Positions 26,001-59,902 of a stretch of DNA of 64,000 nt are shown here, piece by piece. The position numbers and the translations under genes are program-made. Each line of letters starts with the position of its first letter. The stretch's first letter is position 1. A model generated the notes under the pieces. The model saw nothing but the letters and a program-made list of their open reading frames with translations. It did no database searches and was not told the DNA's origin. The stretch is from a virus: positions 119,412 to 183,411 of IMG/VR virus record IMGVR_UViG_3300008255_000099; one strand, given 5' to 3'.

Positions 26001-27535
26001 TTTTCAAAATCTATTATTTTTCTATTTGGATATTTTACAAAAAGCATATCTCCAACAGTCAGTTCCTCCGCAGTAAACCATTCTGGATTTGGATTAAAAT
26101 CATATTTTTTACACTTAAAAGGAAGAGACCAATTATTTTTTTGTGGTAATTTATATCTATGTGTTTCATATACTTTGGAACCTAAAATTTTATGATCTTT
26201 AGTTAAAGTAATTGAATCAAATGAATTTTCTGTTTTTATATTTAAAAGTTTTTCATTTAAAATATTATATTTAAAAGTATTTTTTACTTTTTGGCTTTTA
26301 CCAGAGTGTGTAAATACTGAATCCCCAATTTTTATTTCATCCAATCTCTTAAAACCATCATCTTTTGTTAAAACAAGAGCATCTCCTGTTAAACAGCCAC
26401 GCCCAGGACCTACGCCAATCCCTTTTTCTTTGCAAAATCTGAAGATATCCCAAAGAATTAGGAAGTATTCTTCTGTTCCCATCTCAAAAATTTTATCAAG
26501 CTCAAATCTAGTTCTATCTTTATATTCCTGTTTTTCAAATAATGAAAATGTTTTTAATCCTTTGATTGCAAGATATTTTAAAAACGCTTGATGGTCTGTG
26601 AAATGAGGCATTTTAGATGCCTTCCAAGATTCAAATTCATCTGTTTTTTCAATTGAGAACGCTGGGAACTTCCAAGTTGTTTTGATTGGGAAACGATATT
26701 CACATTTTTCTGCTATTTCCATGGTGTTTTTGCAAGCATCCGGCACCTCTGAAAATAATTCGTACATTTCTTCTGCTGATCTTAAATAGAATTGATCTGA
26801 ACCATATCCTATCCCACTATTCTCCGTGTTTTTCATTCGAAGATGTTTTAACAAAGTGTGGGCATTTGCATGATTTTGGAAGATATAATGGACATCGTTT
26901 GCAGCTACAAGTTTAATTCCATGTTTTCTTGACATTTCAATCATAAACTTGATAATTGGTTTTTCTATTTCAAGACCATGATTTTGAATTTCGAGATAAT
27001 AATCTTCTCCAATAATTTCTCTCCATTCACAGATTATCTTTTCAGCAGCTTCAAAATTGCCCTTTAAGACTTCTTGTGGCGCAATTCCAGATGGGCATCC
27101 AGAAGTAACAACTAATCCATCTAATCTTTTTTCAACGACAGACCAATCAACCCTTGGTTCATAATAATAACCTTCTGTTGCACCAATGTTGGCCATCTCA
27201 ACAAGATTTTTATATCCTGTCTCATTTTTGCAAAGCATTGTGATATGGTTGTGCTTTGGTCTCTTCATTTTTCCATCACGGAGAACATTTTGCTTTACTT
27301 TCATGTCTCCCTGATAAAAATAAATCTCATTCCCAACAATTCCTTCAATTCCAACTTCCGAACATCTTTTTGCAAATCTGATAATCCCACCCATTCTTCC
27401 ATGGTCAGTGATTGCTAGGTGTGAAAACCCTAACTCTTTTGCTCGATCAACAAGATCTTCTACCTTGTTCAAACCGTCATTAATTGAAAACATCGTATGG
27501 CAGTGGAGGTGGCAGTATTGGTCTGATTTTATCAT
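23054..27535 (-). CDS. dnaE: DNA polymerase III alpha subunit (family C) with intein
   Basis: PHP HLHCHTMFSINDG and AITDHG; GPGRG|SGAGSLVLY; LPDVDSDF; HAAGVVIS; KFDFLGL; TYGILVYQEQIMQ; FNKAHS; IKGIG HhH. Confidence 0.96.
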   Translation of the reverse strand: MIKSDQYCHLHCHTMFSINDGLNKVEDLVDRAKELGFSHLAITDHGRMGGIIRFAKRCSEVGIEGIVGNEIYFYQGDMKVKQNVLRDGKMKRPKHNHITMLCKNETGYKNLVEMANIGATEGYYYEPRVDWSVVEKRLDGLVVTSGCPSGIAPQEVLKGNFEAAEKIICEWREIIGEDYYLEIQNHGLEIEKPIIKFMIEMSRKHGIKLVAANDVHYIFQNHANAHTLLKHLRMKNTENSGIGYGSDQFYLRSAEEMYELFSEVPDACKNTMEIAEKCEYRFPIKTTWKFPAFSIEKTDEFESWKASKMPHFTDHQAFLKYLAIKGLKTFSLFEKQEYKDRTRFELDKIFEMGTEEYFLILWDIFRFCKEKGIGVGPGRGCLTGDALVLTKDDGFKRLDEIKIGDSVFTHSGKSQKVKNTFKYNILNEKLLNIKTENSFDSITLTKDHKILGSKVYETHRYKLPQKNNWSLPFKCKKYDFNPNPEWFTAEELTVGDMLFVKYPNRKIIDFEKIDLSEFVDSNYKTTDDEIILINPLTKNETTRFSRYIEQDEDWFYFCGRWIGDGWYEHSEEEKKYRLGISFHSEDFNGINRICLYLEKLGLNPKITKHKDKNLIQVHIYNKIITKLFSCLFKDYKFSSSTKYIGKFKYVKDSLLRQLLLGLKHSNGSNELSKKIKRENIDTTSYRLLLDLRECLLYLKIPNYISRSAPYKIGNYNCKESYRIRFKGLELEKDKKHSNLEDGYFIKIKNISETTNDFVYDLSIDDDSSYLTQNFVVHNSGAGSLVLYLLEISFVDPLDPELNLMFERFLNPGRSSQYKFEFKEYPVSQWKEDGGETESTGKLRELVGKMMESDQFRQYTPSLIREILPLENQNLDNYYYDLISKDIQIDGNPVNSWIAYCLDLVQEAPDGPLEVYKMGSLPDVDSDFDHKRRHEVIEYVIEKYGQDHVVNIGTYQGFSTRSCLVGALKDAGINHEDALSVSKAIPKGAESIVDALKAKEVSQALRRLGVKRSVVDNAAIIEGSAFSAVSEHAAGVVISPHNLMDKIPLHKAKDAIVSQFDLSDMESAGYIKFDFLGLSNVGKLSRCLEYIKNRPDDGIEIDFRSVDRNDKGALSIFSQGWTSTVFQFWRPHVKEMLKPQQVGVDSFNDIVAINALNRPGPMKYISKDMYDKQRDPEKDPKWTPGITYAENKKNPDKIKYIHKDLEPILESTYGILVYQEQIMQIAQVVGGFTLSEADVLRKAVGKKDGDLFEWCRKKFFDGAERNNYSKDVVQRIWNLAQDFASYSFNKAHSTVYGLSAYWNAYLLNYFPHEWYAASINEDIEKEDKVLMYIDEINKINKQTNANILFVYPNVNTSTLDCFVDYNYENSGEFAIVLPLNFIKGIGKNAISVIESRETQQYKNFKDFCYRARPNKMVLEKLIDGGACDCFISDVALNIGRNQMKEMIVDIKNEITKIKKTEEFEKDVPEDLSDLFNLSSDWSEIIDGDSDKLPF
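25202..26395 (-). mobile_element. intein in DnaE (398 aa) with probably degenerate LAGLIDADG endonuclease
   Basis: GPGRG|CLTGDALV...SYLTQNFVVHN|SGAG; block C FCGRWIGDG; block E LLLGLKHSNG lacks the catalytic acid. Confidence 0.94.
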
Positions 27536-45227: not shown

Positions 45228-46133
45228 ATGATGGAAATCCTGAAAATGAAGCCGAACGAAATCGGCTACGACGAGATGGAATATCTTAGACTAAACAATG
45301 CAATTCCAGAATTTAATGATTTCTTTGATTCAGATGGAAAAGAGATTGATCATGATTCACCATGGCACGACGAAACACTTTGGGAACATGTCAAATTGGT
45401 CTGTGAAGCTGGATTAAAATTTAACCCATTTGAAAGTTGGCAAAGAGAAAGTAATCTTTTTGCGATTTGTGTAATTTGGCATGATCATGCTAAACCAAAA
45501 ACTAGAAAACCAAAAACAAGATATATCTGCAACAACTGCGGCGCAAGCAATACAAAACCATTAGATCTATGCAAGAAATGTAACACAATAGATAAAACAG
45601 AAAAAATAGTCATGGGATATCATGGGCATGAAAAATTAGGATCAGAGACAGTTGAAGAGCTTTTAGAAAATCATAAATTTGATTTATCAAAAAATGAAAT
45701 TAAAATAATTAAAATCGTAATCAAAAATCATTTGCTTGTTCATGAATTAATTTTTGATTATACAAATGGAAATATCAATCCGAAAAAATGGTTAAAGTTT
45801 TTTGGCTCATTTTGTCAAAATCCGACTGTTTTAAAAATGGCTATTTGTTTGTCCTTGGCTGACAACGAAGGAAGAATTTGTAATGCCCCATCAAATTATG
45901 AATCTGATAAAATTGATGATATAGATTATTTTGTTTCTAGAATAATGGAAGAAACCAAAACAAAAAGAACCCGCCCGAGCGACAACTTGTCGCCCGAGCA
46001 GGTTCAAACAATCAAAGAAATTGTTAAAATAACTATCCCAGATTATGCCTTACTAGACAAATCATCATTGTTTAAATACCTAGCAAAAAACGATAGACAA
46101 GATTTAATCAAAAAAATTCTTGAACAATTATGA
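45228..46133 (+). CDS. HD-domain phosphohydrolase with zinc-ribbon insert
   Basis: WHDETLWEH; WHDHAK; inserted CNNC...CKKC; YHGHEKLG; KNHL; ADNEGR. Confidence 0.8.
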   Translation: MMEILKMKPNEIGYDEMEYLRLNNAIPEFNDFFDSDGKEIDHDSPWHDETLWEHVKLVCEAGLKFNPFESWQRESNLFAICVIWHDHAKPKTRKPKTRYICNNCGASNTKPLDLCKKCNTIDKTEKIVMGYHGHEKLGSETVEELLENHKFDLSKNEIKIIKIVIKNHLLVHELIFDYTNGNINPKKWLKFFGSFCQNPTVLKMAICLSLADNEGRICNAPSNYESDKIDDIDYFVSRIMEETKTKRTRPSDNLSPEQVQTIKEIVKITIPDYALLDKSSLFKYLAKNDRQDLIKKILEQL

Positions 46134-47360
46134 AGTTAAAGAATGATTTGTCCCTTGTTCACCATCAACGGGCTCTAAAAGAATTTTACTAAAGATTCTT
46201 TCTGTTGCCTTTTTTATTTTTGTTTCTTTGTTGTCAACAATTGCAAACAACAAGTCTTTATAAAGATGTTGATTGGCTTGTAAAGCAAATTTTTTCTTAA
46301 AAGTTTTATTCAACTCGTCAGATTCAATTAGATTATCTTTTTTCCATTGCTCAATCCATCGGTTTGCTTCTAAAATTTCTAACTCAAATTTTTGTTTTCT
46401 AATCAAATAAAACTCAAGCCAATCCTCTGCTTGTGTCAACCAATCAACATCAAAATCTCTTAAAACCATAGATTCTTTCATTTGTTCAACGGTTGTAACA
46501 CCATCATCTTCACACATTTGAACAAATCCCTCAAAATCAAATTTGAATCTTAATCTGTGCCTTTGAAGATATACATCTGTTTTTATTCTGCACATCCAAC
46601 CAGTTTTTTGATCACGAACAACAACGCCTTCGTTGCCCCACTGATCTTTTTCTTCTAATTCGTTTAATTCATTTTTTAATGTTTTTAATTTAGTTGTTTC
46701 AAGATTTGTAATCCTTGCAACTAAATTTAATTTTCCTTCTAATGATAAGTCTTCTAATTCATCCCAAGAAAACATTCTGTGATTTTCTCTTTCTTTAGCA
46801 TGAAGAAGAACTAAATCTTCAGAATTGTATTTTATAACAATAAAGTTGATTGGTGAAATAAACTCAAAAAAGATATCTAATTCTGGATGCCAGTTAGGAT
46901 CTAGTAAGATCGGGTATTTTGATTTTATCAAAGACATCACAGGCTGCTCAAAGTCATTCAACTGATGAGAGCCACGAGTTCTTAATAAAACTTTCCCTTG
47001 ATAAACAGATCTGATTATCAAAGAACCATCTTCTTTGACTGTGATAATTGCGTCCCCAGATGCAATAGATCTAGAAATTGTAACATCTATTACAGACAAA
47101 GCCCCTGATGTCCCATCCCCACCAACACCATAATCTTGGAATTTTGGCAAACCACCTGAAACTTCAACCCCACTTTCATCAACAAGGGATGAACGCCAGT
47201 GCAATTCTGAATTGACTCCAAATGGATCAGATTTATCATAATTCCAAGTGTATTTTGAAAAATGAGGGACAATCAAAAATAAATCTTGATCTGTTATTTT
47301 TTTAATCATAAAACCACGAGTCACTGTTTCATCATTGTTGTTCCACCAAGGAAACTTCAT
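46128..47360 (-). CDS. RNA ligase, T4 Rnl1-like
   Basis: GLPKF; motif I KEDGSLI; RTRGS; FFEFISP; LVLLHAKERE; EGVVV; RIKTDVY. Confidence 0.85.
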   Translation of the reverse strand: MKFPWWNNNDETVTRGFMIKKITDQDLFLIVPHFSKYTWNYDKSDPFGVNSELHWRSSLVDESGVEVSGGLPKFQDYGVGGDGTSGALSVIDVTISRSIASGDAIITVKEDGSLIIRSVYQGKVLLRTRGSHQLNDFEQPVMSLIKSKYPILLDPNWHPELDIFFEFISPINFIVIKYNSEDLVLLHAKERENHRMFSWDELEDLSLEGKLNLVARITNLETTKLKTLKNELNELEEKDQWGNEGVVVRDQKTGWMCRIKTDVYLQRHRLRFKFDFEGFVQMCEDDGVTTVEQMKESMVLRDFDVDWLTQAEDWLEFYLIRKQKFELEILEANRWIEQWKKDNLIESDELNKTFKKKFALQANQHLYKDLLFAIVDNKETKIKKATERIFSKILLEPVDGEQGTNHSLTS

Positions 47361-47436
47361 GTTTGTCCTCTTCCTTCTTTTTTAAATCACGCAAATGATT
47401 TAAACCAAAATTTCGTCCAATCCAAATCTTACCAGA

Positions 47437-47465
47437 ATCGTAACACAGAATCCCGGCGGCGTCAA
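47437..47465 (-). promoter_or_regulatory. sigma70-type promoter for the Rnl1-like ligase
   Basis: TTGACG-17 nt-TACGAT on minus strand. Confidence 0.75.
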
Positions 47466-47514
47466 GTAGATACCATTTTGGAAAAATAAAAATTGGACCA
47501 AACCATGGACCAAA

Positions 47515-47559
47515 AAAAATGGTTTTGTTTAACTTTTTAAGTTAAACAAAACCATTTTT
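47515..47559 (-). terminator. 21-bp perfect hairpin, terminator of the small membrane gene
   Basis: AAAAATGGTTTTGTTTAACTT-TTT-AAGTTAAACAAAACCATTTTT; T-run follows on minus strand. Confidence 0.8.
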
Positions 47560-47575
47560 GATCAATTTTTTGTGT

Positions 47576-47728
47576 TTAACGGACCCAATGTCCATGACTA
47601 CCAATAAGTTTGGAAACAATGACCACGAGAGCAACAACAAGTAGGATATGAATCAACCCACCGCCTACACCTGTCCCCAAACCTAGACCCCAAAAGATAA
47701 TTAACAGAATAATCAAAGTTTCTAACAT
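47576..47728 (-). CDS. lmo0937/DUF5670-like small membrane protein (50 aa, missed by ORF track)
   Basis: Manual translation MLETLIILLIIFWGLGLGTGVGGGLIHILLVVALVVIVSKLIGSHGHWVR; GGGGG RBS; matches the W.LG.....GG.IHILLV.A..V pattern. Confidence 0.8.
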   Translation of the reverse strand: MLETLIILLIIFWGLGLGTGVGGGLIHILLVVALVVIVSKLIGSHGHWVR

Positions 47729-47739
47729 CTTGCCCCCCT

Positions 47740-47769
47740 AAATACCGATAAATACCGATAAATACCGAC
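47740..47769. repeat. 10-bp tandem repeat x3
   Basis: AAATACCGAT AAATACCGAT AAATACCGAC just upstream of the RBS of the small membrane gene. Confidence 0.9.
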
Positions 47770-47900
47770 AAGTATCTATTCCTATGTGAAATGAGAATAC
47801 CTCTATTAGAACAAAAACACACTTTAACACCGATTGCTACCATAAAACAAAAACTCTCTAAAAAGGATGTTGTGAATTTTCCCGAGAATTAAAAAACATC

Positions 47901-49727
47901 ATGAATAGAAATGAATTTTTCAAAAAACTTGATAAACTTGAATCACTAGGCAAACATTCTTTTATTGATATTTTAATTAAAAAAATTGTTCTTTCACAAT
48001 TTGATGATGATGATGATGAGTTTGGGTTTGATGCAGAATATGCTGATGATGAATATATTGATCGAGACGAACAAGAAGATAATAGAGAAGAAGAACAATA
48101 TCTAGCTCACCATCAAGTTAGAATGGAAAGAGGGTTTGAAAACTTTCTACTAGGATTTTCATGGTTCGCTGATAGCGATAGGAATTGGGATCGTAATAGA
48201 TCACAAAAAGATGCTGTTGAGCAAATGCAAAATTCTGACGATCCTCCCGATAAGAAAAATTTAGAGTTTGCACACTCTGCAATTTCAATTCTATCATACG
48301 TAATTGAAAGATATGTCGAGATAAATATAAATTCACCAGTCGATTTGCTTGAAAATTTAAATCTTTTAAGACCTGGACTTATTATTATGCTAAATCGACT
48401 TCTCGAAGTAGGAGCAGAATTACCAAATCCAATTTTAATTGCAATGTCAATATCAGAATTTATAAACTATCAATTGAATTTTAGACAAGAAATAGATAGA
48501 TATGATCAATTAAATTCAACAGAACAAGAAATTCAAATTAAACAAAAATTTAGTCCATTTATCCAGAATTTAATTGATAAACTTTTTAGAAAAGATAACT
48601 TATATGTTTTAACAAAAGACACGAATGTTGATCAAATAGCAGATCGGGCATTGTCTATGGCAAATGAACTTATTTCTAGGTTTAACCAATCAAAATTAGA
48701 AATAGATGATTCAATTGTTCCTGAAGATCTTTCTAAAATCAACCCAAGAAATGTTTATCCTAAATCAGATATAAATATGTTATCTGATAGTAGATATGAA
48801 GAAGTAAATGAAACCACAGAATATATTTTTGAAATATTTAATAGATACTTGAAAAAATTATTTTTCAAAATCCTACAGACAAGACAAAGATTAGATTTAT
48901 CTGAAAATGATTGTCAAATTATAGTTTTTGATTTTATTAAAAAATCTGGAATTTTTAGAAGCAAAGAGATCCCCCTGCAAATAAAAGAAGATTTTTTGAA
49001 AGATTTAAAAAATCAAATTACATGGGCAAACAAAGAAATGAATCAATTTTTAAATGAATATGATGTTTTTGATAATCTTTATTTTTATTTAGGAAATAGT
49101 GGTAGAAATAGAGATCATTATAGGCGCTTTCAATCTGCTGAAAATTATGATCAAAAAGTTAGACATATTGAAAGATTTTTTTATGATCACCCCGTCGAAG
49201 TCTTTGATCTTTTGATGGGTTTTTTGGGAACAAATGCTTGTTATTTCTTGAGATCCCGATTTAATATAAGTGAATCAAGATTTGATTCTAACTTTTTTAC
49301 GAACAATGATATGTTTAATAAATTCAGACCCGATCAACAACAAAAAATTAAACAAATGATATTGAATTTAATAAACACTTATATTAAATCGTTCATCTCA
49401 AAAGAAAATCCAATTATTTTTGAAATAATGAATGAAATTTCAAAAATTAGCCCAATATTCAAAAAGATGACAGGGATTCTTCCAGAGGATCTTGCAGAGA
49501 TTTTTCACCCATTTGTCGATTTTGTTCAGCAACAAATTGATGAATTCGTCAAAACAAATGATCCGGGTTATTATACCAAAGCATTAAATGTCGTTGACAA
49601 AATTTTAACAGCAGGGAACACTTCTTCTTTGTTCGGAGTAGATCCAGAAGAATTTGTCAACTCTTTCATGGAAATAGATCCAGAAGAAGCAATGAAAATT
49701 AAAAGAAGAACTATTTCTCATAGATAA
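47901..49727 (+). CDS. large hypothetical protein (probable paralog of 60270..62810)
   Basis: 608 aa; shares N-terminal motif and FNKF.P..Q.KIK motif with the 846-aa ORF. Confidence 0.8.
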   Translation: MNRNEFFKKLDKLESLGKHSFIDILIKKIVLSQFDDDDDEFGFDAEYADDEYIDRDEQEDNREEEQYLAHHQVRMERGFENFLLGFSWFADSDRNWDRNRSQKDAVEQMQNSDDPPDKKNLEFAHSAISILSYVIERYVEININSPVDLLENLNLLRPGLIIMLNRLLEVGAELPNPILIAMSISEFINYQLNFRQEIDRYDQLNSTEQEIQIKQKFSPFIQNLIDKLFRKDNLYVLTKDTNVDQIADRALSMANELISRFNQSKLEIDDSIVPEDLSKINPRNVYPKSDINMLSDSRYEEVNETTEYIFEIFNRYLKKLFFKILQTRQRLDLSENDCQIIVFDFIKKSGIFRSKEIPLQIKEDFLKDLKNQITWANKEMNQFLNEYDVFDNLYFYLGNSGRNRDHYRRFQSAENYDQKVRHIERFFYDHPVEVFDLLMGFLGTNACYFLRSRFNISESRFDSNFFTNNDMFNKFRPDQQQKIKQMILNLINTYIKSFISKENPIIFEIMNEISKISPIFKKMTGILPEDLAEIFHPFVDFVQQQIDEFVKTNDPGYYTKALNVVDKILTAGNTSSLFGVDPEEFVNSFMEIDPEEAMKIKRRTISHR

Positions 49728-49886
49728 GACCTGGAGGAATCAATAGGCAACCTCCATTTTTTAGAAGCAGAGAAACCATGTGGCATGTCGGGCATTTATA
49801 AATACCATCAAGATCTAATTCTGTCAAATCAATATGAGAATCATTAACTAAATCATCATTTGCAAAAACTAGCCATTTTTATCTCC

Positions 49887-49930
49887 AAAAAACTCACCCG
49901 CAGGATTTTCGCCCTGCGGGTGAGTTTTTT
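49887..49930. terminator. bidirectional intrinsic terminator
   Basis: AAAAAACTCACCCGCAGG / CCTGCGGGTGAGTTTTTT immediately after the TROVE stop. Confidence 0.88.
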
Positions 49931-49932
49931 CT

Positions 49933-51876
49933 TTAGAAGTTTTCTCTAATGTATTCCATTGTTGGGACAGAGATTTGCTTCGCTTTCTCTTCATCTTCTT
50001 CATCAATCCCAATTATTGACTCTATATAACCTTCTGATTCGACAACTCTGTTGAGAACCTTTTCAGAAAAGCCACTGATAATTTGAGCCTTATTATTTTC
50101 ATCGATGTTGATGGCTGCTTCACCATACCCAGCAAGATCAACAACATGTATCCAAGCTTTGGGATTAATTCTCTTTTTGTATAATTTCCATTTTGAATTC
50201 AAAGAAGGATCTATTTGTCTTAAATTCATCATTGGCTTTTCAAAAGAATATAATTGCATATCTGTAAAGAAAATAACTCTATCAACAGAAATTCTATTTT
50301 TAATCAAATAATCAACAACTTTCCATCCCTCTGTTGACCAACCGACATTGGCATTAGAAAGTTTCTGCATATTTTTAAAAATTCCATCAGATGGATCTAA
50401 ATCAAATCTTTCATAATCTGTTCCCCAAGCAATCGCAATTGCATCATCACAAATTATGTTCGCCATCGAACTCAAAAGATTTCCCACAACTTTTCTAGTC
50501 ATTCTTGTTTTTTCTGAAATTATGGAGTCCATAGATCCAGACTGATCAGTTGCTAGAACTGTCGTCCCAGGTAATTTAGCTAAATTCTCTGCTGAATATT
50601 CAATCGCTTTTTCAAGAGCTTTCAGCAAAGATTTCTTGATTTCACCATTCGCACGAGAATTCAAAGATTCTGCAACTGAAGGATCTGTTCTAATAATATT
50701 AAAAGATGAAAGATACCTAAATGGAAGTTGTCTAGAAGACAAAACCTCCTCTTTGTTGGAAATAAGTTTTATAACCATACTCCAATGAGCATCAGAAATC
50801 TCAGCTTTAGCAAAGTTTCTAATGTTTCTTAAAACAGCCATAAAATTAGTTCTTGGTCTTTTACCTTGCTCTAGACTCGTTTTACCAGTCATAATTTCAG
50901 CACAAAGTTCCCAAACTTCTTTTTTGTCTTTTTCATTTCCGCCAAATTGAGAACTAAGCATTTCCCAAGTTGAATTGCATTTCTTTGCCAATTCAATTGC
51001 CCTCGGACTAAACTCCGACATTTTAGACAATTCTTTGGCTGCATAAATTGATGGAATATCTCTCTCTGCATTTTCATCAAGAGTCCCATCATAAACCCAC
51101 TTCAAAAGAGATTGATTCTTTATTGGCCAACCCTTTTTTCTATCAATTAGATTTAAAACATCTGCAAATCTTGGATGATCCTGATTGTTATATTTCATAA
51201 ATCCGTATTCTGAAATAGAACTCATAGCATCTGCTAATCCACGCTTTAACGAATTCGGCAAACCCTTCCCTTTGGTCGCAACAACCGGAGACCCATTGTT
51301 GTCTAAAAGAACTTCACCATTTTCGTCATTTAACATTACAGTTCTTGTACCAAATAAAAACATGTAAGCAGCAACTACGTCCTTGATTTCATCTGGTCTT
51401 TGAATTATCTTTCGACAATATTCACGGACAAAAGGCTTCGTCGCAGGATGCTCTGCTGCAATCGCCAACAACCACTGCGGAGTTGTCCTGATATTCATTT
51501 CATTTCTAGACCAATTAGCCAGTTTTAACAAATCTTGAGGTGTTTTAGAATCTGCAATATTCCAAGCAGTCATCAATAACAATCTAGTTCTGTCTTCCAA
51601 TGAATTAAATGTTTCTACATTAACTCTTTCTTTTATGTCGCTTTTATAGACAGGACTAAATATAGATCCGGTTTTCTGCATTTCTTGATATTTGAATCCC
51701 GCTGGATAATATGCTGTTTCATTTAAAAAACTAACACCAATCATTGTTAACATTAACGTCGAAGGATCTTTGATTGCATACGCAACCCCGCCAGCAGCAT
51801 TAACTAGTTCTTGGCGAATCTGTTCGGCTTCTTCTATCTCAAAGAATTCATCCATGACCTCTAAGATTAAATCCAT
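49933..51876 (-). CDS. TROVE-domain (Ro60/TEP1-like) RNA-binding protein with vWA domain
   Basis: SRNEMNIRTTP; IIQRPDE; LPNSLKRGL..ISEYGFMKYN; TWE; MAVLRNIRN; SRQLPFRY; vWA ATDQSGSM and FFTDMQ; ATG 51876 with AGGAGA RBS. Confidence 0.9.
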   Translation of the reverse strand: MDLILEVMDEFFEIEEAEQIRQELVNAAGGVAYAIKDPSTLMLTMIGVSFLNETAYYPAGFKYQEMQKTGSIFSPVYKSDIKERVNVETFNSLEDRTRLLLMTAWNIADSKTPQDLLKLANWSRNEMNIRTTPQWLLAIAAEHPATKPFVREYCRKIIQRPDEIKDVVAAYMFLFGTRTVMLNDENGEVLLDNNGSPVVATKGKGLPNSLKRGLADAMSSISEYGFMKYNNQDHPRFADVLNLIDRKKGWPIKNQSLLKWVYDGTLDENAERDIPSIYAAKELSKMSEFSPRAIELAKKCNSTWEMLSSQFGGNEKDKKEVWELCAEIMTGKTSLEQGKRPRTNFMAVLRNIRNFAKAEISDAHWSMVIKLISNKEEVLSSRQLPFRYLSSFNIIRTDPSVAESLNSRANGEIKKSLLKALEKAIEYSAENLAKLPGTTVLATDQSGSMDSIISEKTRMTRKVVGNLLSSMANIICDDAIAIAWGTDYERFDLDPSDGIFKNMQKLSNANVGWSTEGWKVVDYLIKNRISVDRVIFFTDMQLYSFEKPMMNLRQIDPSLNSKWKLYKKRINPKAWIHVVDLAGYGEAAINIDENNKAQIISGFSEKVLNRVVESEGYIESIIGIDEEDEEKAKQISVPTMEYIRENF

Positions 51877-52059
51877 CTTTTTTCTCCTACCTTTTTGCCA
51901 CGAGTTTCTCGGGAATTTACACCACACGTTGACCGTGGGTGTTAAGACCGTAATTATACCCCGTCACACACCCCATGAACACAAAAGAAATTTGGTTTTT
52001 TGGGATAAAAACAGAGATTGATGTATAATTAAACTATCTTTGAAAAAGAAGGAGATTCA

Positions 52060-52293
52060 ATGTCAAAAATAAAAGAGAAGATAGACGCAAACAATGAATT
52101 TTTGAGATCTGTTATTAATCTGAAAGATAATTTTTTCACAGAATTCCAAACCCTCAGCATTATAAGAATGTCGGAATCTATTTTCAAAATGCAAGAAGTT
52201 TATGAAGAAGATAAAGAAAGATGGGATGTTTATCTTAATTCTATTGATGATGTTTATGGGACAAATCTAAAAAATCAAAAAGGAGAGAAATGA
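52060..52293 (+). CDS. hypothetical protein
   Basis: 77 aa, AAGGAGA RBS, upstream TGTATAAT. Confidence 0.75.
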   Translation: MSKIKEKIDANNEFLRSVINLKDNFFTEFQTLSIIRMSESIFKMQEVYEEDKERWDVYLNSIDDVYGTNLKNQKGEK

Positions 52294-53237
52294 GTAAAAT
52301 TTCTGTATTAGGAGATTATATGATTGATGAATATCTTTTTTGTTCAACAGATAGAATCTCTCCAGAAGCTCCAGTTTTAATTGCAAAAATAAATGAAAAA
52401 GAAATTTCCCCAGGAGGAGCAGGAAATGTTGCAGCAAATATGTCTTTTCTGGGAAATGAAACACAAGCATTAGGATTAGGAGGGAAAAACGATTTCGGAG
52501 AATTTGAGATTTTATTTGAAAAATATTTTTTTGATAATGTGAATGTTTTGATCTTCCCGCATTATCAAAAAAATATAAGAAAAACTAGAGTTGTATCTGA
52601 TAATCATCATTTATTAAGAATTGATTGCGAAGAAGATATTTACAATGGTAAAGATATAATTAATTCATTAATTAGAGAAATGAAAAACTTCAATCCAGAT
52701 TTCTTAATTATCTCTGATTACGACAAAGGGATGATCTCTAAAATTGATATAGATTTTACAGCTTCTGTTTTTAAATCTATTCAAACAGAAATAATAGCTG
52801 ATATTAAACCAATTAATTTCAAAATTCTAAATCAAATAACAAAAAAATCAAAAAGAATTAACACGATTTTACCAAATGAAAAAGAAATTAGACAAAGTTT
52901 GCCAAATAAAGATTGGGATTTAGAAAGTTATGCAAAATATTGGATTGATAAAGATTTATGTGAAAACGTTGCTATTACAAGAGGTGAAAATGGGATTCTT
53001 TTTGTTACTGAAAAAGAAAAATTCTCAATAACCTCAAAAACAGAAGAAATTGCAGATGTTTGTGGCTGTGGCGACACCGTCACCTCTATCTACACCCACG
53101 CCATCTCTGAAGGAATTAATAAAAAATCAGCAATTGAAATAGCAAATGAATGTGCCGCCTTAACAGCTAAAAAATTTGGTGCCTATAAAGTTTCAAAAGA
53201 AGAATACTCAGAAATTAAAGAAAATTATTTATTTTAA
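52290..53237 (+). CDS. rfaE: heptose-7-phosphate kinase domain (RfaE/HldE domain I, PfkB family)
   Basis: VLGDYMIDEY...DRISPEAPV; PGGAGNVAAN; KTRV...LLRID; ISDYDKG; PNEKE; TRGENG; DVCGCGDTV. Confidence 0.88.
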   Translation: MSKISVLGDYMIDEYLFCSTDRISPEAPVLIAKINEKEISPGGAGNVAANMSFLGNETQALGLGGKNDFGEFEILFEKYFFDNVNVLIFPHYQKNIRKTRVVSDNHHLLRIDCEEDIYNGKDIINSLIREMKNFNPDFLIISDYDKGMISKIDIDFTASVFKSIQTEIIADIKPINFKILNQITKKSKRINTILPNEKEIRQSLPNKDWDLESYAKYWIDKDLCENVAITRGENGILFVTEKEKFSITSKTEEIADVCGCGDTVTSIYTHAISEGINKKSAIEIANECAALTAKKFGAYKVSKEEYSEIKENYLF

Positions 53238-53389
53238 ACCTTTCCAGAGCATTAGGAAAGCTAGTCACTACCAACACCATCTATTAGGGTCCAAATTTTA
53301 GGACTCGCTAGAAAATAATATTTAAGTTATGACTTCCACCTCAGCCACGACTTGCCCTTGGGAGTATAATATAAGGTGAGAGAGGACAT

Positions 53390-53686
53390 ATGGCAGAAAA
53401 GAAACAAATGATTGAACCAAAAGACAAGATTTTCATTCTAAAATGTGATAAAGATTTTACTCTTTGTGGAAAAACTCTATCAAAAGATTCTATTTTCTTG
53501 GTTTCAGCAGAAGGTTTTTCTTCCACTACAATAAAAGTAGAATTGTCAAATGGCTCTTTCTTTATTTATGGCAAGTTAAAAGAAGTTGCCAAAGATGCAA
53601 TTCTTTTCAATGGACAAGAATGGGTTTCATTATTAGGAAATAAAATTAATAATAAAAACGAAGATTCGTGGGATCTTGATATATAA
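53390..53686 (+). CDS. hypothetical protein
   Basis: 98 aa, GAGGA RBS, upstream TATAAT. Confidence 0.75.
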   Translation: MAEKKQMIEPKDKIFILKCDKDFTLCGKTLSKDSIFLVSAEGFSSTTIKVELSNGSFFIYGKLKEVAKDAILFNGQEWVSLLGNKINNKNEDSWDLDI

Positions 53687-53705
53687 TTAAATAAAAGGAG
53701 AAAAA

Positions 53706-54617
53706 ATGAACGAAGATGAAAAAAATGTTTTTTCTTTAATTACAGAAGAAACAGCCCAAGATAGATTTATTAATCTTTTAGAAAATCTTGAGAACAAACA
53801 GATAACTTTAAATTATTCAAAAGAACAAATAAAAGATAACATCCTACTTTCTGTTTCTGATGAAGATTTAAAAAAATTTAATGAATTAATAGAAGACCTT
53901 CTTTTAAAAGAAGAAAAAGCTTTTGAAGCAAACAAAAAGCTTAATGTTAAATTTGTTTCGGAAAATGAGCAAAGGATTTATAAAGAATACCAGGATCCTT
54001 TTTTAGAAGAAACTGAAATAATAATCGAAACAAACAAGAAAGTGGTTTTCAAAAAAGAATTCCCAAATTGTATCGCATATTACGATCCTTCTTTATTAGA
54101 TGAAGAAAAATATGTTCCAACACCAATGGATCTAATCATGCAAAAAGTTTTACATCGAATTGATGGACCCGCACTAGAATTCAAAGACGGTGGAGTTGAA
54201 TGGTGGGTTAATGGCGTTAGACACAATTTGAATGCGCCAGCAATTCAAAAACCAGACGGCACAGAAGAATGGTGGGTTAATGGTTATTACCACCGAGTCG
54301 GAGCGCCAGCAAGAATCAGCCCAAATGGGAATTCTGAATATTGGGTTGCTGGAATTAGACATAATCTAAAAGGGCCGGCGATAACAAACAAAAAAGACGG
54401 AGATTCCTATTATATTTATGGCAAAAAAATGTCAAAAAAAGAATTTGAACTTTATCTAGAATTACAAAAAACAGTGCAAGAGAATGTGTTTAAAACAAAA
54501 GAAGAAATGATAGAAATAATAGAAGAGTTAAAACAAAAAGAAAAAATAAATGTTGTTTTTAAGAATCAAGAACCAAAGGGAATTACACCAGTTGGAACTG
54601 TCGGAAAAACCATATAG
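53706..54617 (+). CDS. protein with HRxDGPA...WxxNG repeats (MORN-variant-like)
   Basis: LHRIDGPALE..DGGVEWWVNG / RHNLNAPAI..PDGTEEWWVNG / YHRVGAPA..NGNSEYWVAG / RHNLKGPAI. Confidence 0.8.
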   Translation: MNEDEKNVFSLITEETAQDRFINLLENLENKQITLNYSKEQIKDNILLSVSDEDLKKFNELIEDLLLKEEKAFEANKKLNVKFVSENEQRIYKEYQDPFLEETEIIIETNKKVVFKKEFPNCIAYYDPSLLDEEKYVPTPMDLIMQKVLHRIDGPALEFKDGGVEWWVNGVRHNLNAPAIQKPDGTEEWWVNGYYHRVGAPARISPNGNSEYWVAGIRHNLKGPAITNKKDGDSYYIYGKKMSKKEFELYLELQKTVQENVFKTKEEMIEIIEELKQKEKINVVFKNQEPKGITPVGTVGKTI

Positions 54618-54629
54618 AAAGAATCAAAA

Positions 54630-55715
54630 ATGTCTGAAGAAGAATTGCAGCAACAAGAAGAAGATGTTGTCGATGATTTACTTGTGGATTTTGTGGAAAT
54701 ATCTAAAATTGAACCCCACCAAGATCCAGAAGTTGAAAGACTTGAAGTTGTTCATGTCAAAGGGTGGAAAACATTAACCCAAAAAGGTCAATATCAACCA
54801 GGGGATGTCGTTCTCTACATCCCCCCCGATTCTATGATTCCAGTCGAATGGGCTCAAAAATGGGGGGTTGAAGAATATCTTCACTTTAAGAAAAATTCAA
54901 CATTTGGACGGGTTAAAGCAATCCGTCTCCGTGGCGAAATGAGTTATGGATTTGTTGTTAATCCAAAAAATCTTGTTGGGTTGAACATCAAAGATTCTAT
55001 TGGGATCAAAAAATATCAAGAACCACAAAAAAGAAGGGGATTTGCTTCTGGTGAAGCTGAAAAAGAACACTTCCTTTTCTATAAATATACTAAAATCCAA
55101 AACACCAAAAACTATCCTGACTTCTTAACCCCAGGCGAAGAAGTCGTAGCCTCTGAAAAACTACACGGGACAAACTCAAGAATTGCTTTTATTAAAACAA
55201 ATGAAAACTTTGAATTAATGATTGGAAGCAATAGAACGAGAAGGAAGTTAGGGACAGAAAGTATTTATGAAAAACCATTGGCTTTGTTCCCTCAATTAAT
55301 GGATTTGTTTGAAGATTTGCTTTATCAAAATGAAGAGTTAAATTCAATCATAGTTTTCGGTGAAATTTTTGGATCAGGAATTCAAGATTTAGAATATGGA
55401 AAAGATGAAATAACTTTCTCGGCTTTTGATATCTGTTGCGATCATGTCTATCTGGATTTTGATGATGCTAGAAATCTCTTCCAAAAACACCAAATCCCAA
55501 TGGTCCCATTGCTCTATGAAGGTCCCTTTGATCAAAAATTAATGGAAGAACTTTCATCAGGAAAAACAACCATAATGAAATCTAAGGCCCACATTCGAGA
55601 GGGAATTGTCGTTAAACCTAAAATTGAGAGAGAAGTTAAAGGATTAGGACGTGTTATCCTTAAATTTATTAACGATGATTACTTGTTAAGGAAAAAAGGG
55701 ACTGAATTCCATTAG
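54630..55715 (+). CDS. RNA ligase, DRB0094 family, with N-terminal OB-like domain
   Basis: IEPH...ERLEV..VKGW...GDVVLYIPPDS; RVKAIRLRGEMSYG; SEKLHGTN; FGEIFG; AFDI; VPLLYEGPF; REGIVVKP; ILKFINDDYL. Confidence 0.9.
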   Translation: MSEEELQQQEEDVVDDLLVDFVEISKIEPHQDPEVERLEVVHVKGWKTLTQKGQYQPGDVVLYIPPDSMIPVEWAQKWGVEEYLHFKKNSTFGRVKAIRLRGEMSYGFVVNPKNLVGLNIKDSIGIKKYQEPQKRRGFASGEAEKEHFLFYKYTKIQNTKNYPDFLTPGEEVVASEKLHGTNSRIAFIKTNENFELMIGSNRTRRKLGTESIYEKPLALFPQLMDLFEDLLYQNEELNSIIVFGEIFGSGIQDLEYGKDEITFSAFDICCDHVYLDFDDARNLFQKHQIPMVPLLYEGPFDQKLMEELSSGKTTIMKSKAHIREGIVVKPKIEREVKGLGRVILKFINDDYLLRKKGTEFH

Positions 55716-55765
55716 TCAATTCCAAAAACAATCAACACTTGTGTCAGACTAGCTAAGACCAAACC

Positions 55766-55893
55766 AAAAACAGCGGGCCGGACCTTGAAAGGTCCGGCCC
55801 GCTGCCACCATGCTGCTGCTGAGAGAGAGAGCACTCGCTATTTAATCTTTTGGCTTCCTCGGCCGCCGCCGCCGGCGACCGCTGCGCCATAGC
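55766..55893 (-). ncRNA. candidate ~128-nt structured small RNA
   Basis: Bounded by a consensus promoter and an intrinsic terminator; GC-rich stems (GCUAU/AUAGC, GGUCGCC/GGCGGCC); no RBS; the only ATG frame stops beyond the terminator. Confidence 0.6.
55771..55804 (-). terminator. intrinsic terminator
   Basis: 15-bp perfect stem CAGCGGGCCGGACCT/AGGTCCGGCCCGCTG, TTTTT follows on minus strand. Confidence 0.85.
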
Positions 55894-55897
55894 CAAC

Positions 55898-55926
55898 ACT
55901 ATAGCAAAGCCACCACCGCCTGTCAA
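55898..55926 (-). promoter_or_regulatory. near-consensus sigma70 promoter
   Basis: TTGACA-17 nt-TATAGT on minus strand. Confidence 0.85.
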
Positions 55927-56146
55927 GCAATCCGACAAAAAAGACGCAACCCCGCTCCCAGAGCGGGTTCGTGGCCGATTCCACTAAGCCGAAACAGAAT
56001 AAGAAAAAAGCCAGCCAAGGATTTTGTTCCCTCGAATCTATTCCCGCTCATGTCTGAGATTGTCAGAGGTTGAATTGGGAGGGATAGAAACTCACTTCAT
56101 TCAAATCCAATTCATAACTTTTTCCCTAAAAAAATGACGCAATTTC

Positions 56147-56182
56147 CTCCAGAACTCCAGACCTCCAAAACTCCAAAACTCC
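56147..56182. repeat. CTCC direct repeats with 8-bp period (x5)
   Basis: CTCCAGAA CTCCAGAC CTCCAAAA CTCCAAAA CTCC upstream of the Ubl promoter. Confidence 0.85.
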
Positions 56183-56206
56183 TTTCCAAAAGGATTCTTG
56201 CTCCGG

Positions 56207-56214
56207 TGTATAAT
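56207..56214 (+). promoter_or_regulatory. putative -10 box (TGTATAAT) of the Ubl operon
   Basis: TGTATAAT flanked by CCGG/CCGG, 55 nt upstream of ATG 56269. Confidence 0.65.
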
Positions 56215-56268
56215 CCCGGCATCGAAGGCGAACGGTCAAAGCCGACGCCGATCAAGGGAGTAGCTACA

Positions 56269-56499
56269 ATGAGTGAAACGATTTCGATTCGACTGATTTG
56301 CAACAATGAGGCTGGGTATGCCGACAATGTGACGGTCCCCGCCGGAACCTCAATCGGGGAACTTTTCCGTGAAAAGATGCCCGAGCACAACCCCGCCGAT
56401 TACGTGATCCGGGTGAACGCCGAGCCGGTTCAGCGAGCGCAGATCCTCTGCAACGGCGACCGTGTTACGATCAGCCCGCAGAAAGTCGCTGGGGCTTAA
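56269..56499 (+). CDS. ubiquitin-like (beta-grasp, ThiS/MoaD-like) protein, 76 aa
   Basis: MSETISIRLICNNEAGYADNVTVPAGTSIGELF...DYVIRVNAEPV..QILCNGDRVTISPQKVAGA; AAGGGAG RBS; C-terminal GA. Confidence 0.85.
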   Translation: MSETISIRLICNNEAGYADNVTVPAGTSIGELFREKMPEHNPADYVIRVNAEPVQRAQILCNGDRVTISPQKVAGA

Positions 56500-56504
56500 G
56501 ACAA

Positions 56505-56547
56505 AAGATCCGAGACTAGGGAATCAAATTCCCTAGTCTCGGATCTT
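56505..56547 (+). terminator. 20-bp perfect hairpin after Ubl (attenuator, stabiliser or processing site)
   Basis: AAGATCCGAGACTAGGGAAT-CAA-ATTCCCTAGTCTCGGATCTT; no clear U-tract. Confidence 0.7.
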
Positions 56548-56579
56548 ATGCTCTAAATTCTAGTTCGAATGAGGGCAAT

Positions 56580-57806
56580 ATGTCTCAAGAAACACTGAGG
56601 GAATTGTTTAAGTTTGCCAAACAAATAGAAACTCAATTTGTGCCCTCAAGAGGACGAATGCTACGATCAAATCTAGAAAATAATAATTTAAAGAATCAAA
56701 TTTCTAAACTTATTTTTATTCTCAATAGATTAGAAAATTGCTCTGAAAATAACATGGATCGTTCAATCAATGCTATGTTTGAATATGTCAGAAAAAATAA
56801 AATTATCGAAGATGTTCAACAAGGAGTTAATTTCTTAGCTTCTGTGAGAAACACGAGAGAAACATCTGATGATATTAGTAATCTTTCTCTAATCACAAAA
56901 GATTTGTATTATCTTAAGAGAGATTTTAATTGTGTTCGACTCTCTTTTCAGCCACTTTCGATTACCATCAGAACCGATCCCATTTTCTTGACTCATGCAA
57001 GTGTTAATCTTGGGAATCCAGTTGAGATTGGTGAGATTGACATTCAATTGTTTTTGACGGGGATCGAAGAATTTAGAATTAGAGCAAAGCCAGTTAGAGA
57101 TTCAACGAAGTTTTCATCCGAAAGATCTGGATCTGATAGATATTTCCATCCTCATATAAATATTGATGGTAGCATTTGTCTAGGAAACAATGGAGAAACA
57201 ATTAATTCAGCCATAAGACAATGTAGATTTTTAGATACATTCGAATTACTTTCCTTTTTGCTTAAAAACTATAACTCAGGAAGCCCATATCGTGTCCTGA
57301 ATTCATGGGTTATGCCAGAATGTCAATCCTGCGGAGACTCAACAAGATTAAAATGCTTTTTCACACATCAATATGTCTGTGAATCTTGTGCTATGATTGT
57401 CCTTTCTGAAAATGGTTGGCCCCAATTTGCGACACCTACATATTGGCAGCAACAACCCGCTTGCAAATGCTGTGGCCATAAATTGCAATTTGGTAGTTTA
57501 TGTCCCAGATGTGTAGAACTAAATATATATCTAATAAAAATAGCTGAAATTGAACAAGCACAAGAACGTGAAAAAGCAAAAATTGCTTCTTTTAAAATCT
57601 TATTCGAAAAATCAGAAGCAGACTTTGAACCAATTTCTGAAAGAATTTCTTCGCTTCATTTTGATCAAATTGAAGCAATCAATAGATCAAATCTGACATA
57701 TTTTAATTCAACCTACTCATATGAAGAAGCAAAAGAGATTGCAAAAAATAGCTTCAGATTTTCCTTCCCCGTAATGATAGAGCCTGAATTGGTAGGACAA
57801 ACCTAA
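56580..57806 (+). CDS. prokaryotic E2/UBC-like conjugating enzyme fused to a Cys-rich zinc-finger region
   Basis: FHPHINIDGSICLG (Cys200) E2 signature followed by YNSGSPY; then CQSC, CESC, CKCC, CPRC; helical N-terminus. Confidence 0.82.
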   Translation: MSQETLRELFKFAKQIETQFVPSRGRMLRSNLENNNLKNQISKLIFILNRLENCSENNMDRSINAMFEYVRKNKIIEDVQQGVNFLASVRNTRETSDDISNLSLITKDLYYLKRDFNCVRLSFQPLSITIRTDPIFLTHASVNLGNPVEIGEIDIQLFLTGIEEFRIRAKPVRDSTKFSSERSGSDRYFHPHINIDGSICLGNNGETINSAIRQCRFLDTFELLSFLLKNYNSGSPYRVLNSWVMPECQSCGDSTRLKCFFTHQYVCESCAMIVLSENGWPQFATPTYWQQQPACKCCGHKLQFGSLCPRCVELNIYLIKIAEIEQAQEREKAKIASFKILFEKSEADFEPISERISSLHFDQIEAINRSNLTYFNSTYSYEEAKEIAKNSFRFSFPVMIEPELVGQT

Positions 57807-57844
57807 AAATAGGTTGTTTCAAAACCATGACAACTGGAGAAAAG

Positions 57845-58918
57845 ATGATGCCAGACTCAGACAAAGAAGAGTTGTTCGGTGCCGACGGGGTTCAAAAAAC
57901 CACAACCTATACAGCCGGCAATTTTAATTCTAGTGTGAATTCACATAGAGTATTTTTCAAAGGAATTGGGTGGCTTACTGTCTATTCTAAAAGCAATAAA
58001 AACAAAACAACTGTTAATTTGAACCCGACAACAACGACAACAAAGAAATCAGAACCATTAAAAATCGTGCGAAAAAACTTAATGTTTTCTGGGTCTGCAA
58101 TGGCTAAGTTGTTGTGGTGTCGTGATAAAGGCGGCACAGAAATAGCCGGCTTCGGCATCTCGTCAAAAGAAGATCCGCTTTACATCAAAGAATTTTGCCT
58201 AGTTAAACAAGACGCCTCCGTTGCCTACGTTGAAATGGACGACGACGGCCTTGTAGAATTTATTGAAAAAATGGACGACAGAGGATTAGACCCCTGTGAA
58301 TACCTGAGAATTTGGATTCACACTCACCCCGGATCTAGCCCGTCGCCATCTGGAAAAGACGAAGAAACATTTAGAACAGAATTTTCTAACTGCAACTGGT
58401 CAGTTATGGCAATCCTTGCCAGAGGCAACCAGTTCTATGCTAGAATCAAAATGAACGAAATTAATTTCGCCGTAGATATCGAACATGAAGTTAATTGGTC
58501 TGATATGAAAAGTGAACTTCTGGATGTCACAGCTTGGGAAACAGAATTTGAAGAATGCGTTAAAACTACAAGTTATTCACATTCATATTATCAAGGAATG
58601 GGCGTGGGAAATAATAATGGTTGGGAAGACTATGATGGATTTGAAACCATGGTTTCAAATCCATCATATTCATATCGCCACTCAAACGTGAATCAGGGAC
58701 AAGGACAAACGAATGTCAGCAGAAACCAAGCCGACTATGGATATGGAAGTGCCCAACGATCCAGTGTTATTATCAGCCCGAACCAGCAGGTACAAGGAAA
58801 TAATACCGCTGGATTCGTTGACGACAATGAACCTAATGATCGTGGGAACGGGGGCAATTGGGAGACAGGTGGCGCTGCTGATGGCAGCTATGGGCCTGCC
58901 CCAAATGGTGCTGATTGA
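57845..58918 (+). CDS. JAB/MPN+ (JAMM) metalloisopeptidase
   Basis: TEIAGFG; IWIHTHPGSSPSPSGKDEETF fits HxH-x7-S-x2-D; ATG 57845 has a GGAGA RBS (alternative start 57827). Confidence 0.9.
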   Translation: MMPDSDKEELFGADGVQKTTTYTAGNFNSSVNSHRVFFKGIGWLTVYSKSNKNKTTVNLNPTTTTTKKSEPLKIVRKNLMFSGSAMAKLLWCRDKGGTEIAGFGISSKEDPLYIKEFCLVKQDASVAYVEMDDDGLVEFIEKMDDRGLDPCEYLRIWIHTHPGSSPSPSGKDEETFRTEFSNCNWSVMAILARGNQFYARIKMNEINFAVDIEHEVNWSDMKSELLDVTAWETEFEECVKTTSYSHSYYQGMGVGNNNGWEDYDGFETMVSNPSYSYRHSNVNQGQGQTNVSRNQADYGYGSAQRSSVIISPNQQVQGNNTAGFVDDNEPNDRGNGGNWETGGAADGSYGPAPNGAD

Positions 58919-59462
58919 TTTCGATAAGGTCGAAGCTGAAAACCTTGGCCCACAAGGTTTTCGGCCCGACCAAATCGGCCAATTCAAAACAGAATGCTTG
59001 CTGGAAGATTGCCAGAGAATCAACCCGGAAGCGAATTTTACCGCTGTCACAGATAAATTCCGGGCGAAATTTCTTCTGGATTTTAAACCAACAGCAATCA
59101 TTTCATGTGTCGATTCAATGAGAATTAGAGCAATGATTTGGGAAAATATCAGAATGTTGGATTGTTTGTTTATTGATACCAGAATGTCATCAGAAACTTG
59201 TGAAATTTATTCGTCAGAAGCTCCGCATAGTGGTTACTATGAAACCACCCTTTTTGAAGACGCAGAAGCATACCAAGGATCCTGCACAGCGAAAAGCACA
59301 ATCTATTGTGCCAATATCGCAGCCGGTCTGGCCGTTTCTCTGCTCTCCAAAGCAATGAGGGGCATCTCACTTGAACCAAAACTTTCATTGAACATTCTTG
59401 GCTCTGAATTAGAAGCAATTTTCATGGAACCAGAAACACAAGAAGAACGACCAGAAGAATAA
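58713..59462 (+). CDS. ThiF/MoeB/E1-like adenylyltransferase
   Basis: IVGTGAIGRQ; LIDFDKVEAENLGPQ; KTEC; ISCVDS; IDTRM; GSCTAKSTIYCANIAAG. Confidence 0.92.
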   Translation: MSAETKPTMDMEVPNDPVLLSARTSRYKEIIPLDSLTTMNLMIVGTGAIGRQVALLMAAMGLPQMVLIDFDKVEAENLGPQGFRPDQIGQFKTECLLEDCQRINPEANFTAVTDKFRAKFLLDFKPTAIISCVDSMRIRAMIWENIRMLDCLFIDTRMSSETCEIYSSEAPHSGYYETTLFEDAEAYQGSCTAKSTIYCANIAAGLAVSLLSKAMRGISLEPKLSLNILGSELEAIFMEPETQEERPEE

Positions 59463-59475
59463 ATCAAACCAAAAA

Positions 59476-59517
59476 CCAAACGGGGCAGGCCAACCACCTC
59501 TGGCCTGCCCCGTTTGG
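59476..59517. terminator. intrinsic terminator closing the Ubl operon
   Basis: 17-bp perfect stem CCAAACGGGGCAGGCCA/TGGCCTGCCCCGTTTGG between convergent genes. Confidence 0.82.
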
Positions 59518-59530
59518 CCAATTGGATCAA

Positions 59531-59902
59531 TCAATTAATCAAAGCCGCCAACAAATCTGTTGAAGTGCTAATCTTTTCATCAATTAAATCAACTAAATAA
59601 TCTTCCTCACCAAAAAAAGAACTATCTAAATGATCTATCCCACCAGTCGCAACTAAAATCAACCCCAACTCATTCTGAATAACCTCAACACTATCCAAAA
59701 TCCTCATCGCTAAAACACCCTTCTGCTTGTTATCAAAAACTTCTACAGGATCTATATTCAAATCATCATGAATATCTTTTATCTTATTGGAAATCCTTTT
59801 CAACCTCTCAGATATCTCATTCTTTATAATTCTTCTGTCTAATTCTAAAATTTCACTTAACTTGTCGATTACATTCTCTATCTCTCTCGGTGATGTTGAC
59901 AT
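59531..59902 (-). CDS. hypothetical protein
   Basis: 123 aa, AAGGAGG RBS. Confidence 0.75.
   Translation of the reverse strand: MSTSPREIENVIDKLSEILELDRRIIKNEISERLKRISNKIKDIHDDLNIDPVEVFDNKQKGVLAMRILDSVEVIQNELGLILVATGGIDHLDSSFFGEEDYLVDLIDEKISTSTDLLAALIN

Follow-up and report, generated by a model that had tools for sequence, protein, structure and literature searches.

We predict that the intergenic region between an RNA ligase gene and the gene of a ubiquitin-like (Ubl) protein in an uncultivated phage encodes a small RNA (sRNA), and from the sequence we judge it probable that a discrete non-coding transcript is made from this locus. The locus has its own minus-strand promoter and a Rho-independent terminator, which bound a transcript inside the 50-300 nt range of sRNA genes, and no complete ORF lies between them. 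The signals of a self-contained non-coding transcription unit, proposed in the original prediction for this DNA, are strong, and chance does not explain them. That the locus is an sRNA gene and also acts by base pairing is a joint claim which we hold with somewhat less than even confidence.

The locus lies on a contig of 183,411 bp (an IMG/VR viral record) with a GC content of 32.5%. Bases 119412-183411 of the contig form the window, the whole stretch of 64,000 nt that was analysed, and positions below are those of the window unless stated otherwise. Completeness of the contig was estimated at ~58% (CheckV), which at a length of 183 kb indicates an uncultivated jumbo phage. The candidate sRNA is located between an RNA-repair cluster (TROVE protein, two RNA ligases) and a ubiquitin-like conjugation operon, in which the Ubl gene is followed by an E2-like gene, then JAB, then ThiF/E1. 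The features that frame it are the following.

46128-47360, second RNA ligase, Rnl1-like
49933-51876 (or to 51927), minus strand, TROVE/Ro60-like gene, 3.84 kb from the candidate sRNA
54630-55715, plus strand, RNA ligase gene (Pfam RNA_ligase plus PHA02142 OB domain), bordering the gap
55716-56268, non-coding gap of 553 nt that holds the candidate sRNA
56269-56499, plus strand, Ubl (ubiquitin-like) gene of 76 aa, the other border of the gap

The geometry, described originally as divergent from the Ubl operon, was right, and the unit is also convergent with the RNA ligase gene. The elements of the unit itself are listed in the order in which a minus-strand polymerase would meet them.

55944-55972, minus strand, weaker terminator-like hairpin with U6 just upstream of the sRNA promoter (dG -14.2)
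55921-55926, minus strand, -35 hexamer TTGACA
55898-55906, minus strand, extended -10 TGcTATAGT (TG 55906-55905, TATAGT 55903-55898), 17-nt spacer from the -35
55889-55892, minus strand, predicted window for the transcription start, most likely at A55890, which is at the same time the A of the only ATG
55753-55890, minus strand, 45-aa low-complexity ORF with its ATG at the predicted 5' end, running through the terminator and judged incidental
55851-55889, minus strand, 5' stem-loop SL1, RNA nt 2-40 (9-bp GC stem, GCGG loop, UGGC/GCCA extension)
55808-55850, minus strand, linker, RNA nt 41-83 (43 nt), mostly unpaired by unpaired probabilities, GC 0.47
55766-55806, minus strand, intrinsic terminator of the sRNA (17-bp hairpin at 55806-55769, 4-nt loop, U5)

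The minus-strand promoter TTGACA-17-TATAGT of the original prediction was confirmed, and an extended -10 TG was found in addition. Thirteen sites with 11 of 12 consensus matches occur on both strands of the 183 kb, and TGn is present as well at the sRNA promoter only. When the 553-nt intergenic strand was dinucleotide-shuffled, any site of 11/12 appeared in 20 of 20000 shuffles, which gives a chance of ~0.001. Further 11/12 sites were located in the correct orientation ahead of genes, at 52187-52159 (minus strand) for TROVE and at 59948-59921 (minus strand) for a 123-aa gene (59531-59902); the phage therefore appears to use promoters of sigma-70 type. PhiKZ-like phages use their own polymerases, and in its host sigma-70-type promoter the candidate sRNA differs from them. 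The start at A55890 was placed by the usual distance of 6-9 nt after the -10 hexamer and by purine preference. Early timing of the sRNA, also proposed originally, would follow from the host-type promoter only. The 11/12 site at 52159-52187 (minus strand) is itself antisense within a 77-aa plus-strand ORF, ~230-275 nt upstream of the TROVE start, and implies either a long TROVE leader or an antisense RNA.

The terminator had been described as 15 bp with a U-tract. The U-tract was present, but the hairpin counts 17 pairs and not 15; the tail after it is UUUUUGGUUUGG. With a dG of -35.6 kcal/mol it ranks second of the 78 terminator-like matches in the genome. It is predicted to be active in the minus direction only, since a U-run is missing on its plus-strand side. 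Most terminators of this phage are bidirectional; this one is one-directional, and no minus-strand gene feeds into it. The chance of a strong terminator in a given 100-nt window is ~0.01 (~35 distinct strong sites in 366 kb of strand). For the best promoter and the second-best terminator to share a strand and follow each other correctly at a distance of 125 nt, we estimate a chance of roughly 1e-5 per intergenic region. The weaker hairpin at 55944-55972 may act as an insulator that shields the unit from minus-strand transcription arriving from upstream. At -38.9 kcal/mol, a minus-strand terminator at 59475-59518, on the far side of the Ubl operon, is the strongest in the contig; it shares the UUUUUGGUU tail with the sRNA terminator, and the two together bracket a GC-elevated block at 55766-59518.

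An RNA starting at A55890 would be ~125 nt long with 63% GC, against 32.5% for the genome; the original prediction gave ~128 nt of GC-rich sequence. Its minimum free energy (MFE) is -68 kcal/mol (z = -5.2), and none of 200 shuffles was equally stable. The complementary plus-strand RNA had the poorer fold (z = -3.6). The region upstream on the minus strand (55938-56203), checked as a second sRNA, was unstructured (z = -0.15). SL1 has a dG of about -26 kcal/mol (-25.9) and is 80% GC. In the linker, an A/U-rich stretch AAAGAUUAAAUAG is followed by a CU run and then by (CAG)3. The CU run occupies nt 60-70 (55831-55821), inside a weak 4-bp UGCU/AGCA hairpin, and the terminator hairpin occupies nt 85-122.

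Of the stems drawn originally, GGUCGCC/GGCGGCC and GGC/GCC were both present in the MFE fold. The UGCU-(CUCUCUCUC)-AGCA hairpin was present there too, but it is weak, with an unpaired probability of about 0.3-0.8. The outer stem GCUAU/AUAGC forms only with a start at G55893/4, which is 4-5 nt past the -10 and an unusual spacing. A 12-nt motif with 11 positions in common occurs in the same sense in the sRNA (AAGCCAAAAGAU, 55845-55856) and at the 3' end of the Ubl mRNA (AAGACAAAAGAU, 56498-56509); the resemblance may be fortuitous, or the two may have a site for a protein or an RNase in common.

We propose that host RNA polymerase of sigma-70 type would start at about A55890 from the near-consensus extended -10 promoter and stop at the very strong unidirectional intrinsic terminator (55806-55766), giving an RNA of ~120-125 nt. 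The predicted layout has three parts, a stable 5' stem-loop, an open stretch of 43 nt and a terminator with a U tail, and is typical of trans-acting base-pairing sRNAs. Most likely the open stretch would lower the translation of host or phage mRNAs by pairing with their purine-rich ribosome-binding regions, and the CU run would be the core of that pairing. Action in trans on ribosome-binding sites through the open CU/AU-rich segment is a tentative reading. It ranks first among those we compared, ahead of a cis-antisense RNA or insulator; a protein ligand, a leaderless peptide and the lack of any function share the third place.

The peptide reading concerns the coding potential of the locus. 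That the only ATG frame stops beyond the terminator was confirmed: the stop codon is at 55755-55753, 11 nt past the U-run. There are no ORFs that end before the terminator, and a leaderless small-protein gene with its ORF ending inside the transcript was thus not found. Since the ATG of the 45-aa ORF (55890) is the predicted 5' end, leaderless translation is formally possible, and the locus could encode a disordered peptide of 45 aa (MAQRSPAAAAEE...) on a leaderless mRNA, or give a dual-function RNA. The coincidence of the likeliest start, A55890, with the A of the ATG is in keeping with this. Other GC-rich islands of the phage encode low-complexity segments rich in Pro, Ala and Gly, and (GCG)n here would read as poly-Ala; gene callers predicted a 57-aa ORF at the locus on four contigs. 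However, the ORF crosses the 17-bp, -36 kcal/mol terminator, and with its stop past the U-run the terminated transcripts would have no stop codon. Codon-position periodicity of GC is absent (0.59/0.57/0.70), and there is no Shine-Dalgarno (SD) sequence. The 45-aa ORF had no match in PHROGs, and tblastn against phages was empty. We regard a peptide product as improbable.

Pairing with ribosome-binding sites had been suggested in the original prediction, which called the RNA a possible anti-SD regulator by its CU-rich loop and GGAGAG-type sites. The ribosome-binding sites of this phage are of the ordinary AGGAG type, and the GAGAG type is a minority. The CU loop paired with initiation regions at a mean of -7.4 kcal/mol and with internal control windows at -6.1 (Mann-Whitney p = 0.0013). 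Pairing at -12 kcal/mol or lower was found at 25 sites in initiation regions and 9 in controls. When canonical anti-SD-like loops were swapped in for the CU loop, they gave 31-38 sites at the same threshold of -12 kcal/mol, which indicates that the anti-SD capacity of the CU loop is generic. Thus the preference for initiation regions over controls stood, but the loop performed no better than any pyrimidine-rich loop. The whole open segment of the sRNA showed no enrichment at initiation regions over controls or shuffled seeds. Complementarity of the sRNA to phage transcripts reached at most 11-13 nt and was located in the A/U-rich linker. Within the window the best target candidate belongs to the adjacent ligase operon, a 98-aa gene at 53390 (-18.4 kcal/mol, 9 contiguous pairs over the SD). 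A 1493-aa gene at 23054-27535 also counts among the best candidates.

Two other partners were tried and rejected. Pairing with the Ubl mRNA was no better than with shuffles. A CRISPR link, in which the sRNA would be a mimic or anti-repeat of the 28-nt CRISPR-like repeat of the phage, gave an alignment and a duplex energy no better than shuffles. Genomes scanned for the 28-nt repeat to find the host yielded single chance matches only.

RsaE/RoxS of Firmicutes are trans-acting sRNAs whose C/U-rich loops mask Shine-Dalgarno sequences. The candidate sRNA resembles them in having a 5' hairpin, then a partly exposed pyrimidine-rich loop and then an intrinsic terminator, and it is likewise able to pair with purine-rich ribosome-binding sites. 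It differs in that RsaE/RoxS carry a CCC motif whereas the run here alternates C and U, and there is no homology.

Instead of acting on distant messages, the RNA could work on its own neighbourhood, as a cis-antisense RNA or a transcriptional insulator that uncouples the PfkB-to-ligase operon from the Ubl operon. Polymerase leaving the PfkB-to-ligase operon may continue across the sRNA locus and enter the Ubl operon. The uncoupling would then come either from the strong convergent promoter or from a perfect duplex of 125 bp that the sRNA would form with the read-through RNA, a substrate of RNase III. The plus-strand operon (52022-55715) consists of a 77-aa gene, PfkB, a 98-aa gene, a 303-aa gene and the RNA ligase, and the next plus-strand terminator-like site is inside the Ubl gene. 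Between 49925 and 56315 no plus-strand terminator-like site was found, and the hairpin at 55769-55806 has no U-run on its plus side. Since the PfkB-to-ligase operon has no intrinsic terminator, read-through across the sRNA locus is plausible. The plus strand ahead of Ubl has no sigma-70-like promoter of at least 9/12, only a TGTATAAT -10 lacking a -35 (56207-56214). On the other hand, plus-strand read-through is itself something we infer, and the plus-strand RNA, which is C-rich (GC skew -0.17 to -0.28), could be terminated by Rho. The sRNA also overlaps no coding sequence, its 3' end being 51 nt beyond the ligase stop codon. Lambda OOP is a small terminated antisense RNA that overlaps the 3' end of cII. 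Like OOP, the candidate sRNA is short, lies between a sigma-70 promoter of its own and an intrinsic terminator, and runs against the flow of the neighbouring operon, but OOP overlaps coding sequence (the cII 3' end) whereas the candidate overlaps only a possible read-through region. Action in cis is unlikely on these grounds, and pairing in trans is preferred to it.

The neighbourhood of the TROVE gene raises the question of whether the RNA is a protein ligand, as had also been suggested originally. One criterion for calling bacterial and phage Y RNAs of YrlA type is position, within 4 kb of a Ro60 gene and on the same strand (Chen et al. 2014, PMC4201824), and a Thermus phage Ro60 binds phage-encoded Y-like RNAs (PMC12135203). 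The candidate could accordingly be a non-canonical, Y-RNA-like ligand of the TROVE/Ro60-like protein of the phage, set in an RNA-repair neighbourhood. At 3.84 kb from the TROVE gene, and transcribed from the strand that carries this gene, it agrees with the positional rule, and two RNA ligases are close to the locus. The TROVE gene may have a strong sigma-70-type minus-strand promoter of its own ~230 nt upstream of the start (52187-52159), and no better Y RNA candidate was found beside it by Rfam scan and motif search. Sequence and structure argued against the proposal. Neither GNCGAAN0-1G, which Y RNAs carry in the internal loop, nor CGAA was found in the sRNA (motif search of 55766-55890, minus strand), ARAGORN found no tRNA-like domain in it, and no Y RNA family was returned by Rfam with E allowed up to 10. 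The two ends of the RNA do not pair with each other in either the MFE or the centroid fold, and the 3' element is a perfect self-contained hairpin with no bulge. Compared with YrlA/YrlB, Yrn1 and Yrl1/2 of phiLo (PMC4201824, PMC12135203), the candidate is alike in position and RNA-repair neighbourhood, but features of Y RNAs are missing from it: the CGAA motif, the large internal loop, the long Ro-binding helix in which the 5' end pairs with the 3' end, and the tRNA-like module. Of the proposed TROVE ligand, then, the position stood and the sequence and structure did not, and we give this reading a low probability.

Lower still we place the idea that the RNA-repair genes or the Ubl genes of the phage have the sRNA as their dedicated RNA partner. 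It could then be a new structural class of TROVE/Ro60 ligand that has no CGAA or tRNA-like domain and recruits host nucleases, or a regulator travelling with a horizontally acquired Ubl-E2-JAB-E1 cassette.

The base composition of the locus bears on its origin. It is one of only six regions of the contig with at least 63% GC; the others named are a CRISPR-like array, two Pro/Ala/Gly coding linkers and the Ubl gene. The Ubl gene has a GC of 0.57 and a GC3 of 0.68, compared with a genome median GC3 of 0.21, while GC3 is 0.24 in the E2-like gene and 0.38-0.43 in JAB and E1. These values suggest that the Ubl gene and its upstream region were recently replaced or acquired. As the Ubl gene is a compositional outlier, the high GC of the sRNA may partly reflect a joint foreign origin and not selection on RNA structure. 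The same four-gene operon, Ubl - 369 aa - 256 aa - ThiF, was found beside an integrase on a phage contig of 65% GC (L018, 4001-6799).

A further reading is that the locus has no dedicated function and is GC-rich scrap that came with Ubl from a GC-rich donor, its signals persisting or arising by chance. The compositional island formed by sRNA and Ubl, the presence of the operon on the 65% GC contig and a total lack of conservation evidence are all compatible with this. Nevertheless, the joint occurrence of promoter and terminator, at roughly 1e-5 per intergenic region, and a sequence unchanged in contigs from at least 7 samples speak against it, and lack of function has a small probability in our view. 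Flanking repeats that would indicate a mobile element at the locus were not found.

The locus occurs on nine other metagenome contigs, from at least 7 samples, with 100% identity across the intergenic region in every one. Samples in which the phage is present are JGI 3300025150, 3300004210, 3300007986, 3300007987 and 3300025158, and SRR6240789 and SRR6053076. With identical copies only, there is no variation for covariation analysis. A blastn search of the sRNA against 50,697 phage records gave no match, nor did a pattern scan of viral contigs. The metagenome pattern scan gave one match (L015), which was rejected as a chance match of 31 nt of low complexity. A covariance model built from the single sRNA sequence found only itself in the whole contig and the fetched loci, and no paralog. 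Rfam (release 15) had no family at gathering threshold in the window, and the best sub-threshold matches of a permissive Rfam scan of 47000-57000 were terminator look-alikes at 21-23 bits. No tRNA or tmRNA was detected at the sRNA locus with ARAGORN. The single tRNA of the contig is outside the window (genome 39975-40048), with a CUA (amber) anticodon and 55% GC.

Neighbouring genes were also used as anchors for homologs, and the phage proved to be isolated. The nearest homolog of the RNA ligase is 46% identical and not syntenic, and the TROVE gene led to no sRNA homologs. Relatives of Ubl were found at 50-56% identity, and a similar RNA is absent from their upstream regions. The Ubl protein has 412 relatives at E up to 0.001; among them are many proteins (P0124-P0140) that carry two or three tandem Ubl domains in a polyubiquitin-like layout. 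A word-based search with the E2-like protein (408 aa; 56580-57806, plus strand) found only itself among 5.8 billion proteins.

Transcriptomics has shown that jumbo phages make sRNAs, among them ncRNA001-004 of PA5oct (PMC7318152) and the sRNAs of 201phi2-1 (PMC11512511). Like these, the candidate is a short intergenic unit of a giant phage with a start site and a terminator and no plausible ORF, and neither it nor they are similar to known sequences. They differ in that the RNAs of PA5oct and 201phi2-1 were detected experimentally whereas ours is predicted from sequence, and there is no sequence similarity between them. The candidate is thus of a known kind, the orphan jumbo-phage sRNAs, and of no known family. 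Functions are known for very few sRNAs from lytic or giant phages. If real, an RNA that the host polymerase expresses strongly would give convenient access to the takeover of hosts by huge phages at the RNA level. The value of the locus lies in a well-defined orphan candidate that can be tested cheaply, and it is plausibly an ordinary phage regulatory RNA.

Two further elements were seen around the Ubl gene. An 8-nt tandem repeat, CTCCAAAA x 4.5, is present at 56147-56182 (plus strand; GGAG x 5 on the minus strand), directly upstream of the TGTATAAT -10-like box that precedes the Ubl gene, and could be an operator or binding array for the promoter of the Ubl operon. Between the Ubl and E2-like genes, a near-perfect palindrome with arms of 23 nt was found at 56502-56550, and its only U-run is on the minus side. 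As an attenuator or an RNA-stabilising hairpin it may set the Ubl:E2 ratio.
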